Source of the DNA: Patescibacteria group bacterium UBA1406
GTDB taxonomy: Bacteria; Patescibacteriota; Microgenomatia; UBA1406
Length of the DNA stretch: 64,000 nt
Assembly (NCBI GenBank): GCA_002305675.1
Contig: DBQA01000006.1
Coordinates: forward strand, 123,581 to 187,580
Direction of reading: 5' to 3'
Below the pieces are notes generated by a model that was not told where the DNA came from, searched no databases, and worked only from the letters and a program-made list of their open reading frames with translations. A program made the translations under genes and the position numbers. Below, in pieces: positions 57,268 through 63,337 of the stretch (its first letter is position 1; each line of letters opens with the position of its first letter).

Positions 57268-60264
57268 ATGACCGGTCAAAAGCTTCCAGTAGTCCCCAAC
57301 TTCCCCGAGCTTGAGAAAAAATGGCTCAGCCATTGGGACGAGCACGGGACAATGTCTAAATATACGGCGAAAAATAAAGACTCAGGGAAAAAATTCTCCT
57401 TCATTGACGGACCCATTACCGCCAACAATCCCATGGGCGTCCACCACGGCTGGGGTCGTACGTATAAAGACCTGTGGCAGAAATTCCACAACCTCCTGGG
57501 ATTCAAGCAAAGGTTCCAGAACGGCTTCGACTGCCAAGGGTTGTGGGTGGAGGTGGAGGTGGAAAAAGAGCTGAAACTGAAAAGCAAGAAGGACATTGAG
57601 AACCTTGTGCCCGGCGATAGGAAGGCCTCCGTGGCCAAATTCGTCAGCCTGTGCAAGGAAAGGGTGCACAAATATGCCAATATCCAGACCCAGCAGAGCA
57701 GGCGCCTGGGTTATTTCATGAACTGGGACAACTCCTACTTTACCATGGCGGATGAGAATAACTACATGATCTGGCATTTCCTGAAGGTCTGCCATGAGAA
57801 CGGTTGGATCTACAAAGGCCGGGAGTCCGTGCCGTGGTGTCCCCGCTGCGAGACCGCCATCTCTCAGCACGAAATGTTGACGGAAGATTACAAAGAAGCT
57901 ACTCATGAGTCCATCTATCTGGAACTGCCCCTTCAGGATCGTGAAAAGGAATTCCTTCTGGTCTGGACCACTACCCCCTGGACCATTCCCGCCAATATCG
58001 CGGTGGCCGTGGACGAAGACCTGGAATACTCCCTGGTTGAAGGAACGACCGGCGACCGGTACTGGATCGTTAAGGAGGCGATAGGCCGCGTCTTCGGAAC
58101 AAGCCGCAATAGGACCGTTAAAACTGTCAAGGGACGGGCGCTGGTAGGCCTAAAATATAAAGGCCCGTTCGATGAATTGGACGCGGTTCAAAAGGTAGCC
58201 CGTGAAAACCCAAAAACTTTTCACAAAGTCATCGCTACCGACAATAGCATACTACCCGTGACCACGACCGAAGGTACCGGCCTTGTGCACACTGCCGTCA
58301 GCGCCGGGACAGAGGATTTCAAACTGGGCCAGAAATACGGCCTGCCGATGATCCCCGTCATCGCCGACGACGCCAGCTACCTGCCCCACATGGGATTTTT
58401 AGCCGGACAGAACGCCAAAACCAATCCCCGCCTTATTCTGGATTATCTTCAGGAAAGAGAAAAGACTCACGGGGAAAACTGGGTCTTCAAGATCGAAGAT
58501 TTCACCCATCGCTACCCCGCCTGCTGGCGGTGCAAGACGGAGCTCGTCTGGAAGGTGGCAGACGAGTGGTATATCGCGATGGATAAGAAATCCAAAAACC
58601 AAAATCCTAAAGCCAAAGACAATCAGACACTGAGAGAAAGAATGATCGAGGTGGCAAAGTCGATCCACTGGATACCCAAGTTCGGGTTAGAGCGCGAGCT
58701 TGACTGGCTGAATAATATGCACGACTGGCTGATAAGCAAAAAGAACCGGTATTGGGGCCTCGCGTTACCCATATACGAATGTGAAAAGTGCGGCCGGTTC
58801 GAGGTTATCGGTGGTCGTGATGAACTGAAGAAAAGAGCGGTGAAAGGCTGGGACAAATTCGAGGGACACACTCCCCATAAACCTTGGATAGATGAAGTTC
58901 AAATAGATTGTACATATTGCCAGAGTAGAAGCCTTAGGATAGGCGACGTCGGTAATCCGTGGTTGGATGCCGGTATTGTACCCTACTCCACCCTCATTGA
59001 CCCCAAGACCGGGCGGGTAAGCTATACTGACGACCGGAAATACTGGCAGGAGTGGTTTCCGGCCGATTTCATTACCGAGAGCTTCCCCGGGCAGTTCAAA
59101 AACTGGTTCTACGCTCTGATAGCGATGTCCACTGTTCTTGAACGGACACGCCCGTTCAAAACAGTGCTCGGTTATGGCACCCTCCTAGACGAGAAAGGCC
59201 GGCCAATGCACAAGTCGTGGGGTAACATGATAGAGTTCAACGAAGGAGCGGACCGGATAGGAGTTGATGTCATGAGATGGCTGTATGTGCGGCATGACCC
59301 GAAAAAGAACCTATTGTTCGGTTTCCAAAAAGCCGAGGAGACCAAGAGGGAATTCCACATCCCGCTCTGGAACATCCTGAAGTTCTTCCTGACCTACTCG
59401 GAACTCGACGGCTGGAAAAAACCTTCCCGGCCGGGAAAGGACCTGGACAAGGCATCCCTGGCCCTCCTTGATCGCTGGGCCCTATCCAGGCTGAAGAAGA
59501 CCGAAAAACAGGTCAAGAAATACCTGTCCGACTTCGATCCGGAAAAGGCCTCGGGAGCCCTCGAGGAACTCGTCGCGGACATCTCCCAATGGTACGTGCG
59601 CCTCAGCCGGAACCGTGTCTGGAACAACAGCGCCGACGACAAGGATAAGGAAGCATTCTACTCGGCGCTTTACTACATCCTGCATAGCTCCATCATACTG
59701 CTGTCGCAGTTCTTGCCTTTCTTTTCCGAGGAGATATATAGCCTCCTTGGGGGTGAACAAGCATCCGTCCACCTAGAAAGTTGGCCGGTGATTGCCGAAG
59801 GCCTGTATTCGAGACCTTTGAACGAGGACATGAAAAAGGTGCGGGCCATCGCGGAACTTGGCCACTCAGAAAGAAAAAGGCGGGAACTGAAAGTCCGGCA
59901 GCCTCTGGCGGGGGCCGTTTTCACCCTGGACGATAAGCTATTCCCCCAAATGTCCGGAAATCTGGCCGGTTACGAGGATCTCCTATCGCAGGAACTCAAC
60001 ATCAAAAAGGTCACTTTCCAAAAAGGGGCCAAGTCGGCGGCGAAATTGGATACCACTATTACCGACGCGCTCAGATGGGAGGGTGAGATCCGCGACCTTA
60101 TCAGGAAGATACAGAAAGAAAGACAGACGCTGGGTTACAACGTCAAAGATACGATCAAACTGGTCATACCCAAGGTACCGGAACAATACGTCGATCTCAT
60201 TAAACAGAAGGTCCTGGCCACCGAGATAGAGCTTAAAGACGTCAACAAGATTGAAATAAAGTAG
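57268..60264 (+). CDS. ileS: isoleucyl-tRNA synthetase (long, type-2-like form)
   Basis: 998 aa class I aaRS; HIGH-like PMGVHHGWG, KMSKS-like PMHKSWGN, WCPRCETAIS zinc/editing motif; ends with TAG at 60262..60264. Confidence 0.8.
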   Translation: MTGQKLPVVPNFPELEKKWLSHWDEHGTMSKYTAKNKDSGKKFSFIDGPITANNPMGVHHGWGRTYKDLWQKFHNLLGFKQRFQNGFDCQGLWVEVEVEKELKLKSKKDIENLVPGDRKASVAKFVSLCKERVHKYANIQTQQSRRLGYFMNWDNSYFTMADENNYMIWHFLKVCHENGWIYKGRESVPWCPRCETAISQHEMLTEDYKEATHESIYLELPLQDREKEFLLVWTTTPWTIPANIAVAVDEDLEYSLVEGTTGDRYWIVKEAIGRVFGTSRNRTVKTVKGRALVGLKYKGPFDELDAVQKVARENPKTFHKVIATDNSILPVTTTEGTGLVHTAVSAGTEDFKLGQKYGLPMIPVIADDASYLPHMGFLAGQNAKTNPRLILDYLQEREKTHGENWVFKIEDFTHRYPACWRCKTELVWKVADEWYIAMDKKSKNQNPKAKDNQTLRERMIEVAKSIHWIPKFGLERELDWLNNMHDWLISKKNRYWGLALPIYECEKCGRFEVIGGRDELKKRAVKGWDKFEGHTPHKPWIDEVQIDCTYCQSRSLRIGDVGNPWLDAGIVPYSTLIDPKTGRVSYTDDRKYWQEWFPADFITESFPGQFKNWFYALIAMSTVLERTRPFKTVLGYGTLLDEKGRPMHKSWGNMIEFNEGADRIGVDVMRWLYVRHDPKKNLLFGFQKAEETKREFHIPLWNILKFFLTYSELDGWKKPSRPGKDLDKASLALLDRWALSRLKKTEKQVKKYLSDFDPEKASGALEELVADISQWYVRLSRNRVWNNSADDKDKEAFYSALYYILHSSIILLSQFLPFFSEEIYSLLGGEQASVHLESWPVIAEGLYSRPLNEDMKKVRAIAELGHSERKRRELKVRQPLAGAVFTLDDKLFPQMSGNLAGYEDLLSQELNIKKVTFQKGAKSAAKLDTTITDALRWEGEIRDLIRKIQKERQTLGYNVKDTIKLVIPKVPEQYVDLIKQKVLATEIELKDVNKIEIK

Positions 60265-61389: not shown

Positions 61390-61417
61390 ATTATATCAAA
61401 GTGGATTGAAGTGTCAC
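61390..61417 (-). promoter_or_regulatory. putative promoter for tRNA-Val (-35 GTGACA 61417..61412, 16-nt spacer, -10 TATAAT 61395..61390, minus strand)
   Basis: Reverse complement of 61390..61417 reads GTGACActtcaatccactttgaTATAAT, about 19 nt upstream of the tRNA 5' end. Confidence 0.4.
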
Positions 61418-62034
61418 CTCAGGTAATTCCCGTAGAGAGAATCGAATATGTCCTGGACCTCCTCTGACAGGCCCGGTTCGGTGAAGGAGCCGGTCATGGT
61501 GTAAACAGTGTTTCTCCTGACATATATCCTCTGTTCCAGGTTGACCGCCTGCCCGTTGGAAACGTGGCTGCCGCCCAGGACCCGCAGATAATAGTTGTCC
61601 TTGGTGGTGACAAAATCCTTGCTGTAGCTAAGCGCGGGAATGGCGGAATAGGCTCCCTGGATGAGCCGGTATGTATACTCGTTCGGGTCACCGACCTCGG
61701 CCTGGTTCCTGATCAGGACGACCGAGGGAACGAACTCCCCTTCGCGGACCTGCTTCTCAACCCTGACTTCCACCCTGTCGGATGCGCTTGGCTTGACCCT
61801 CCAACCCTGGGGAAGGTCCAGTTCTTTTTCTGTCCGGGTGGGTGCCAGGCCTTCCGTGACCGGGGGGCGGCCGCCGTTTGCGTTCTGGCTGCGGCGGTTC
61901 TCATTCACCCTCAAAAGGCCGATGAACAGGATCAAAAGCCCGACTATCAACAGGGCGGTCAGGATATTCTGCCGGCCATTTTTTGTATTTGAAGTTTTGG
62001 TCTGGGTTTTTCTCGGTCTGCCTGTTTTGGCCAT
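61414..62034 (-). CDS. membrane-anchored hypothetical protein immediately downstream of sortase
   Basis: 206 aa; basic N-terminus, single TM (ILTALLIVGLLILFIGLL), about 150-aa extracytoplasmic domain; 4-nt gap to the sortase stop. Confidence 0.5.
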   Translation of the reverse strand: MAKTGRPRKTQTKTSNTKNGRQNILTALLIVGLLILFIGLLRVNENRRSQNANGGRPPVTEGLAPTRTEKELDLPQGWRVKPSASDRVEVRVEKQVREGEFVPSVVLIRNQAEVGDPNEYTYRLIQGAYSAIPALSYSKDFVTTKDNYYLRVLGGSHVSNGQAVNLEQRIYVRRNTVYTMTGSFTEPGLSEEVQDIFDSLYGNYLR

Positions 62035-62038
62035 AGTT

Positions 62039-63337
62039 TTACTGATTAACTGATGCTCTAACTACTATTCTGAGGTCCGGGTCGGCCTGGGCGCAGGTGA
62101 TAAGAGCGATCTCATCACGGGAGTTACCGGAGAGGACCGATGCCTCCTTCTGGGAAACAGCCTGCACCGAATCCACGGTATAGATCACTGCTTCGCCAAC
62201 TTTGGCCAGAACTATCTGGTCTCCGGCCGCCAGGGTATAAAGATCTCCGAATAGGCCAGCCGAATTGTGACCGTAAAAGACGTTGTTCCCTGCTTCAAGG
62301 ACTTCCCCGTCACCCACCAGATATTCATTGCCCATCATTTCCGCACGGTAGACCTGCTGGTGCAGGCCGAGCTTGCCGATCATGAGGCTTACTCCCGCTA
62401 CCGCTTCGTTCCCGGAAGGGAGCTTTTCACTGGCAGCCAGAAGATTGTCAGCGCCTGTTTTGGGCAGCTTCTTGTCCTTGGCACCCAACACGCCGCCATA
62501 TGTCCTCTGGATGCCTTCCACCAGGGGGTTGTAATTGTCCTGGACGCCCAGTACCTGGGGTTGTGACGTTGCAACCGCTCCCAGGACAACCGGGTTCGTG
62601 GGAGAGGGGCTTTCCGGAGTGGAAGATGAACCGCCACCGTTTCCTCCCCCTCCACCACCGCCGTTACTTGGGGCTGTGGTCGGGGTCGGAGTTGCAGTCG
62701 GTGTAGCCGTGGGTGTCGGCGTACTGGTCGGTGTCGGAGTGTTAGTTGGTGTTGGATCCGGCTTCTCGGGATCTTTCGGATCTTCCGTATCCGTTGGCGT
62801 GGGCGTTGGGGTATACGTAGGCGTGGGAGTGTCAGTAGGAGTCGGGGTATCCGTCGGGGTAGGTGTATTCGTCGTAGTCGGGGTAGCTGGATCTTCTAAT
62901 CTAAAACTAGCATGGCTAATCTCCTGAGTGTTACCATTCTGGTTAGTTACGGTACTATTTATCGTAATTGTTCCCTCTTGAGGAGGATTAACATTACTAT
63001 AGTTGACAGTATTGGCAGCTTTATAACACCACTCGACTACTAACTTACCTTCGGGAATAATATATGCGTAGCTTACAGCCTCGATTTTATCAACCTTATC
63101 CCAACCATTGCCTGATTCTGGACATACAGCCTACTGGGCACTTACCAGCATCGTCTTGGCAAGCATCAAAGAAACTATAGACAAGTAGAAAAAGGCGGTG
63201 AGAGTTAATATAGTATGGACTTTAGGATTTCCCAGAATGGCCTTGATTTTTTTCGCTATACCAGTCATCAAAATACAAGGATAGCACAAAGGCTTGTTAT
63301 TTTCAACTATACTTTTTACTATAAACACTTTTTCCAA
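62039..63337 (-). pseudogene. sortase-family transpeptidase gene (433 codons) interrupted by one in-frame TAG (63131..63133) between signal anchor and ectodomain; pseudogene, assembly error or readthrough candidate
   Basis: Catalytic domain in ORF 62039..62521 (FYGHN His, IALITC Cys, RIVVRA Arg). Same frame is open upstream for 203 codons (N-domain, PT-rich linker, Gly run) to the TAG. Codons 63337..63134 encode a signal anchor (MEKVF...KIKAILGNPKVHTILTLTAFFYLSIVSLMLAKTMLVSAQ). All coordinates are in one frame (1299 nt = 433 codons). Confidence 0.7.

Follow-up and report, generated by a model that had tools for sequence, protein, structure and literature searches.

The DNA analysed here is a stretch of 64,000 nucleotides (hereafter the window) from contig DBQA01000006.1 of Patescibacteria group bacterium UBA1406 (assembly GCA_002305675.1). 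Near one end, the window carries a sortase gene interrupted by a single in-frame amber codon. The gene is on the minus strand, as are its parts, the promoter-like element and the downstream gene described below. Translation from an ATG at 63268 gives a frame of 409 codons that ends at a TAA (62041..62039), and the sole internal stop is a TAG at 63133..63131. This TAG (63131..63133) is codon 46; the residues around it read AQ-X-AVCPESGNGWDK, where X is the stop codon. The 363 codons past the TAG are uninterrupted and keep the catalytic triad. No ATG, GTG or TTG is present among the 203 codons between the TAG and a GTG at 62521. A first-pass annotation, made from the sequence alone, had placed a sortase open reading frame (ORF) at 62039..62521 and reported the frame above it to be open for 203 codons, up to exactly one TAG at 63131..63133. 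Our retranslation agrees.

The encoded protein can be divided into five parts. Codons 1-45 (63134..63268) specify a signal peptide or signal anchor, MTGIAKKIKAILGNPKVHTILTLTAFFYLSIVSLMLAKTMLVSAQ, with a predicted signal-peptidase-type site (V-S-A) at codons 42-44. Homologues have equivalent N-termini with AxA-type sites at the end. Codons 47-127 (62888..63130) encode an 81-residue domain with two Cys residues (AVCPESGNGW...EISHASFRLEDP), identified by homology, that we call the passenger domain. It is predicted to be all-beta with low confidence; the AlphaFold2 (AF2) model has a predicted local distance difference test score (pLDDT) of 62, too poor for a fold search. The GC content at third codon positions (GC3) is 0.30 in the passenger domain and 0.59-0.79 in window genes. 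Codons 128-238 (62555..62887) translate as a Pro/Thr-rich linker, a Gly run (SNGGGGGGGNGGGSSS, 62668-62621) and a spacer. Thus, the two-Cys domain of about 80 residues, the Pro/Thr linker and the Gly run first reported after the TAG are all in place. Codons 239-287 (62408..62554) form a pre-catalytic block that is conserved in family alignments and reads VLGVQDNYNPLVEGI...LPKTG (62467-62453)...KLPSGN. AF2 modelling over this block gave a helix at model residues 35-44, with pLDDT 55-78. Finally, codons 292-409 (62042..62395) encode the sortase catalytic domain (PF04203), and the TAA at 62041-62039 follows.

The match of the catalytic domain to PF04203 (Sortase) is significant, at 55.6 bits (E = 5.7e-15) where the gathering cutoff is 26.6. 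This match, and the residues themselves, bear out the earlier identification of the ORF from the His in FYGHN (62278-62264), the Cys in LITC (62104-62093) and the Arg in RIVVRA (62071-62054). All three residues are invariant across a 42-sequence alignment. The AF2 model has the eight-stranded beta-barrel fold of sortases, with pLDDT >90, and the top 50 Foldseek matches were all sortases, with E values down to ~4e-9. The best of these were lid-bearing, pilin-polymerising sortases of class C, namely 6BWE, 5K9A and 2XWG (E ~4e-9). None of the NCBIfam sortase class models (A-F and GN) reached its cutoff; class C came closest, with 33.8 bits versus 160. The generic model TIGR01076 scored 33.1 versus a cutoff of 39.35. 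With the class C enzymes (Corynebacterium diphtheriae SrtA, 5K9A and 6BWE; Actinomyces oris SrtC1, 2XWG) the window protein shares the triad and the beta-barrel, and the match spans 180-195 aligned columns that include the pre-catalytic segment. Conversely, identity is ~20%, and in place of a DP(F/W/Y) lid motif the window protein carries an LPxTG-like motif and KLPSGN. A large variable passenger domain and a Pro/Thr-rich stalk are N-terminal to the enzyme.

A search with the full-length conceptual protein returned Microgenomates/Patescibacteria proteins of 333-553 amino acids, whose source names are Shapirobacteria, Roizmanbacteria and Microgenomates. The order of parts is common to them: a signal peptide, one or more variable Cys-containing domains, a Pro/Thr linker, a Gly/Asn run (often with an Fn3 domain), the conserved block and a compact sortase domain. 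The consensus of the block is VLG..DNYNPLV.GI..SYGG.VLG..[LPxTG-like]..KLPSGN. A profile search of 1.84 billion representatives gave 53 clusters at E <1e-30 with the C-terminal block, most of them with a signal peptide and variable N-terminal domains. All parts are encoded as one polypeptide in P0001-P0011 and ~50 more clusters, or ~55 Microgenomates relatives. The passenger domain lies directly after the signal peptide in P0010, P0012 and P0013, and in a 464-residue surface protein from locus L084. Identity to their N-terminal domains is 42-44% for the first three and 55% for the L084 protein. Where the domain adjoins the signal peptide, homologues read ...TVTAQGQEVCP... and the window reads ...MLVSAQ-stop-AVCP.... 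A protein search with the N-terminal 127 residues gave no match. Because the open frame after the TAG is homologous along its length to intact proteins, it is more than a chance event.

These comparisons bear directly on whether the locus holds one gene or two. Gene callers annotate two, and the 150-residue protein P0121 is such a call, made from a GTG equivalent to that at 62491. The genes would be independent, one for a membrane peptide of 45-68 residues and the other for a leaderless sortase starting at GTG 62521 or GTG 62491. Both GTGs are within the family-conserved block, which begins upstream of GTG 62521; hence, neither is a real start. Furthermore, the upstream 203 codons are homologous to intact proteins, a sister strain (see below) reads through the position of codon 46, and a sortase with no export signal cannot reach its substrates. 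The first-pass annotation had looked to orthologs without the upstream module as a sign of independent ORFs; the homologues keep that module, in one ORF. The homologue architecture thus refutes a pair of independent genes, to which we give next to no credence, and indicates a single gene.

Short database calls are also found elsewhere in the family. At L086 the gene is intact (L086 2542-4107) and encodes 521 amino acids with a signal peptide; the database call, P0151 (368 amino acids), is too short. Similarly, the gene at L088 (1-914) is open to the contig edge and its call, P0134 (245 amino acids), is too short. Start prediction for this sortase family seems to go wrong at Pro/Thr-rich linkers that have long ORFs on the antisense strand. 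The L087 contig is error-prone and has several frameshifts. At L081 (3748-3760; Roizmanbacteria CP065004.1, a closed 1.45-Mb metagenome-assembled genome) an A7 run right after the start codon (ATG AAAAAAA GTC) frameshifts P0007, which is annotated without a signal peptide as a result. With A6, the protein reads MKKVTTVLLTIIALLVV.... The A7 run is probably a homopolymer sequencing error; slippage is less likely. We considered whether the family is generally split and rejected this. There is no in-frame stop in L086, L088, L081 or L087, so the split is not a programmed feature of the whole family.

The likely start of the window gene is ATG 63268 (MTGIAKKIK...), 45 codons before the TAG. The homologues have similar N-termini (MTKTLK.../MK...). 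A start at TTG 63337 was assumed originally, which gave 68 codons before the TAG and 433 for the whole gene. This TTG falls within the 3'-terminal part of the neighbouring SNase gene, upstream of a promoter-like element. The reading of the locus as one sortase gene, with a signal sequence ahead of the TAG, holds; 409 codons in all, of which 45 precede the TAG, are likelier than 433 and 68. The anchor, linker and sortase of the original picture are likewise present, but the N-terminal module also includes a passenger domain of surface-protein type. The promoter-like element (TTGAAA-17-TATCCT with TG, 63278..63306; a consensus match only) is ~10 nucleotides upstream of ATG 63268, and this region is 100% identical in the sister strain. 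The −10 element ends ~10 nucleotides ahead of the ATG, and no Shine-Dalgarno sequence is visible. Because the −10 element is so near the ATG and a Shine-Dalgarno sequence is not seen, the transcript may be leaderless or nearly so.

We next consider the origin of the stop. There was no sortase near any of 80 IleS loci of related Microgenomates (best 64% identity, in Roizmanbacteria), and so orthologous positions could not be compared by way of ileS synteny. Searching with the catalytic half found no relative in GTDB genomes or JGI metagenomes, and exact look-ups of the 206-residue ORF, the 160-residue ORF and IleS of the window had no match in protein collections. A search of 15 billion proteins with the catalytic half led to P0121, which is carried by two contigs, one of them Logan SRR8427164_2738 (L083/L085). 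An FtsZ look-up matched only these two sister contigs. L083 represents a sister strain; it is 99.34% identical to the window over 10,675 bp, and its catalytic domain is 100% identical. At codon 46 the window reads GCC CAG TAG GCT and L083 reads GCC CAG CAG GCT. Gln is also present at the equivalent position of the sequence G-Q-E-V-C in P0013 (as CAA) and in L084. Because the sister strain has CAG, and P0013 and L084 have Gln, the ancestral codon was CAG and the lesion is a single C>T transition.

The TAG sits within a strain-variable cassette of ~460 bp (62705..63164; aligned with L083 9313-9787). The cassette spans the last part of the signal peptide, the passenger domain and the greater part of the linker. 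Its flanks differ by no more than ~0.6% between the window and L083, whereas the cassettes are completely different. The passenger domain has 81 residues in the window and 110 in L083, with 36% amino-acid identity. GC3 is 0.27-0.30 in both cassettes, compared with ~0.70 in the genome (range 0.59-0.79). In this respect the cassettes are like low-GC organisms, for instance the L084 donor type, and their composition implies replacement with DNA of low-GC origin. The simplest explanation of the swap would be allelic replacement of a surface-exposed module by homologous recombination. Neither version of the cassette has a second copy in the window or in the loci retrieved. No inverted repeats flank it; only Pro/Thr-codon repeats and one weak inverted repeat were seen. 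We rejected the cassette as the target of a diversity-generating retroelement, as the two versions differ by indels and at ~64% of residues and there is no second copy.

Although L083 has a sense codon at position 46, its allele is not simply intact, as a sense codon in a sibling genome had first been expected to mean. It contains exactly one in-frame TAA, at codon 184 (L083 9758-9760; ..SPSP-stop-ETVAPSP..), near the 3' edge of the cassette; this was seen in one assembly. Past the TAA, the L083 sequence rejoins that of the window and 225 downstream codons are open. Gene callers split this allele into a 203-residue ORF and P0121. With an independent single TAA in the sister allele, the gene appears to be tolerated in a broken state. 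A phase-variable contingency locus was also considered and rejected; there is no reversible repeat tract or invertible element, and both stops are point substitutions.

The same comparison informs on sequence quality. Over the 10,675 bp, 70 substitutions and no indels separate the window from L083, and 11 of 51 nucleotide differences in genes change an amino acid. Given this indel-free agreement, both assemblies look accurate. We weighed a base-call, polishing or mixed-strain consensus error, in which case the true codon would be CAG or another sense codon and the gene intact. The position of the TAG invites such an error. At least two very different versions of the ~460-bp cassette exist, and mis-recruitment of reads could make a chimeric codon. 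Apart from the TAG the gene has no flaw, and the sister strain has CAG. The apparent A7 frameshift in L081 also shows that such artefacts may occur in records of this family. However, the independent Logan assembly agrees without an indel over 10.7 kb, and the differences, most of them synonymous, look like biological variation. We saw no second broken gene in the window, and graph-based short-read assemblers do not invent k-mers. Moreover, the stop in the sister allele is also of the substitution type, so two errors in one gene would be required. Error is a possible explanation, but a less likely one than a real mutation.

We also asked if the TAG could be decoded. Stop codon use was tallied for 48 window genes, a list compiled by hand from the ORF table. 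TAA ends 25, TGA 17 and TAG 6; those ending in TAG include ileS, rodA and the adjacent SNase gene. Alignments of IleS homologues extend as far as the final residue ahead of its TAG. We also inspected five pairs of adjacent genes that share a frame (ATP synthase gamma/beta, glyoxalase/UvrA, MurJ/nucleoside phosphorylase, DnaJ and its neighbour, and one more). All are separate, complete genes, and no other split gene or in-frame TAG was found among these same-frame neighbours. Reassignment of TAG as a sense codon is rejected on these grounds; 6 of 48 genes end in TAG and the genes tested have no other in-frame TAG. The code is standard. The first-pass annotation had stated as much, with TAG a normal stop elsewhere (in ileS) and the other window genes intact, and the stop tally and the neighbouring pairs agree with both statements.

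Low-level readthrough of the amber codon would be compatible with a standard code. A near-cognate tRNA (e.g. for Gln), or a suppressor tRNA encoded elsewhere, would decode the TAG, and the stop would act as an expression throttle. The TAG is at about position +2 of the mature protein, where nearly any inserted residue should be harmless. In addition, the downstream frames are open in both alleles (363 and 225 codons), with one stop each and an identical intact catalytic domain. Conversely, the TAG lacks conservation: codon 46 is CAG in the sister strain, whose own stop (a TAA) is at another codon, and homologues have Gln. Both TAG and TAA end normal window genes. Across the window, L083 and L085 (~93 kb of genome), no CUA-anticodon tRNA was found, and none of pylT-like type was seen. 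Nor was there a stimulatory RNA structure. The 101 nucleotides from 7 upstream to ~90 downstream of the TAG gave z +1.47 relative to shuffles, and the equivalent stretch at the L083 TAA (z −0.93) was no better than shuffles. Other family members examined have no in-frame stop, and the frameshifts in L081 and L087 are most simply sequencing errors. Our literature search found nothing on in-frame stops in Microgenomates or on the Sequence Read Archive run. Known cases of programmed amber decoding (pyrrolysine, suppressor tRNAs, TAG-reassigned phage codes) also involve an in-frame TAG in an otherwise intact gene. Here, by contrast, the sister strain does not share the stop, TAG serves as an ordinary terminator in the window, no pylT-like or CUA tRNA was seen and the second stop is a TAA. 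We consider functional readthrough very improbable.

Our preferred reading, to which we assign a probability of about 0.6, is that the TAG is a real and recent CAG>TAG loss-of-function allele of a dispensable, fast-diversifying surface gene. The intact gene would specify a Sec-exported protein of 409 residues with a signal peptide, an 81-residue beta-rich passenger, a Pro/Thr stalk, the LPKTG block and a sortase transpeptidase domain. Conversion of CAG to TAG at codon 46, two residues past the predicted signal-peptidase site, would end translation after a signal peptide of 45 residues. Because there is no start for 203 codons, and any re-initiated product would have no export signal, no functional sortase should be made. 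On this reading the lesion is recent, since no further stop has arisen in the 363 codons downstream and the catalytic triad is undamaged. Three elements of the account are inferred: a genuine mutation at the TAG and no consensus error, lack of export of the product, and the working of the intact protein as a substrate-sortase fusion. The original interpretation, a single gene split by an amber codon through recent nonsense mutation, error or readthrough, is supported by the homologues and the sister strain.

Several points weigh against a simple loss-of-function allele. The two alleles each have one stop in a frame that is otherwise perfect, which is somewhat more than a random pseudogene predicts. 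This leaves room for selected loss or tolerated readthrough. A consensus or polishing error at the TAG base is possible, especially inside a strain-variable cassette. A suppressor tRNA may also be encoded elsewhere in the genome, ~93 kb of this species having been covered.

Selected loss would mean that inactivation is adaptive. For example, cells without the surface protein might escape a phage, or a host defence, that detects them through the passenger. The two stops would fit this, being independent single-nucleotide changes in strains with 99.3% identity elsewhere. A hypervariable cassette of foreign composition (GC3 0.27-0.30 compared with 0.70) is also as expected under diversifying selection. 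However, only two strains are involved and relaxed selection would fit the data too; there is also no repeat tract or invertible element for reversible switching. Hence, we regard adaptive inactivation as distinctly unlikely. Overall, an ordinary knockout is the most likely explanation of the stop itself and an error is less likely. The context is modestly interesting.

Loss-of-function alleles of this kind have a parallel in Listeria monocytogenes, where multiple independent nonsense mutations in inlA occur in natural populations. In both systems, independent single-nucleotide nonsense mutations arise in different lineages and the sortase-dependent surface protein gene is otherwise intact. 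The L083 TAA would give a secreted passenger without the anchoring part, akin to truncated InlA. The window gene differs from inlA in that it also encodes the sortase itself, and in that two strains are known.

The LPKTG of the window protein (62467-62453) is ~20 residues ahead of the first strand of the catalytic domain. In 37 of 57 family members the aligned residues fit [LFMIVW][PA]xT[GA], an LPxTG-like motif; 13 have LPxTG, 7 LPxTA and 6 LAxTG. The Thr of the motif is at least 90% conserved. After LPKTG there are ~20 polar residues and then the sortase domain, rather than the transmembrane segment and positive tail of a sorting signal. The passenger domain, as noted, also occurs on classical sortase substrates. 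The 464-residue L084 protein is one of these; it has IPVTGA, a transmembrane segment and KK at its C-terminus, and its gene adjoins that of a 271-residue PF04203 sortase. Because the LPxTG-like motif is in place and the passenger domain is found on classical substrates, the intact protein looks like a sortase substrate in which the C-terminal membrane anchor has been replaced by its own sortase. Compared with the two-gene L084 pair (464 and 271 residues), it has a homologous passenger, a Pro/Thr-rich stalk and a recognition-like motif. Unlike that pair, the window family has a sortase domain in place of the transmembrane segment and charged tail, in one ORF.

The LPKTG could be cleaved in cis or in trans, attaching the passenger and stalk to the envelope. 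Alternatively, it could be a pseudosubstrate lid. Our literature search found no description of natural sortase fusions with LPxTG in cis, only engineered tags. Self-cleaving sortase-LPXTG fusion tags have been engineered, for example in the BISOP method (PMC2901362). As in such tags, the enzyme and recognition motif are in one polypeptide, an arrangement that allows self-cleavage of the fusion. The tags are artificial and have the order sortase-LPXTG-cargo, whereas the order in the window protein is cargo-LPxTG-sortase and its self-cleavage is hypothetical. A bolder proposal, which we hold to be improbable, is that these proteins are an undescribed 'self-sorting' family of Microgenomates. In each, the sortase would cut the polypeptide of which it is part, in cis or between copies, and fix the passenger to the envelope. 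Cassettes would be swapped with low-GC donors by recombination, and the TAG and TAA would be selected 'off' states or leaky states of low expression, as opposed to random decay.

Adjacent to the sortase gene is a second gene (61414..62034) that starts 4 nucleotides past the sortase stop. It encodes a 206-residue protein with an N-terminal transmembrane segment and of no known family, having no Pfam or NCBIfam match. A 198-residue gene product follows the sortase at L081, and the two are 26% identical (E 3e-21). Genes are similarly placed after the sortase at L086 (184 residues), L088 (189 residues) and L087 (122 residues, at the contig end). The proteins of 184-206 residues, from the window, L081, L086 and L088, are all small and anchored by a transmembrane segment. 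Because the downstream proteins of the window and L081 are homologous, the 206-residue protein is probably a functional partner of the sortase family. In the other direction, past the right end of the window and upstream of the SNase gene, L083 5146-8640 encodes a camelysin/TasA-like protein (PF12389), an S26 SipW-like signal peptidase, a protein with a lamin-tail domain and a 328-residue protein of unknown type. This looks like a second surface-structure cluster adjoining the sortase locus. By lineage, the window belongs to the Microgenomates (Patescibacteria); its IleS (57268-60264) is 64% identical to that of the nearest GTDB species representative (Roizmanbacteria). The GC content of the window is 53%, versus 35-42% in four related loci (L081, L082, L084 and L086).

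For annotation, the locus is best entered as one interrupted gene (a pseudogene or loss-of-function allele) and not as a 'small membrane protein' and a 'leaderless sortase'. Nothing about the amber codon points to recoding in this lineage. Rather, the locus offers a clean case of strain-level replacement of a surface-protein cassette in an uncultured, episymbiont-type bacterium, with independent knockouts in two strains. If the LPxTG-like motif is a real cleavage site, the family of ~55 clusters would be a natural self-anchoring display module.

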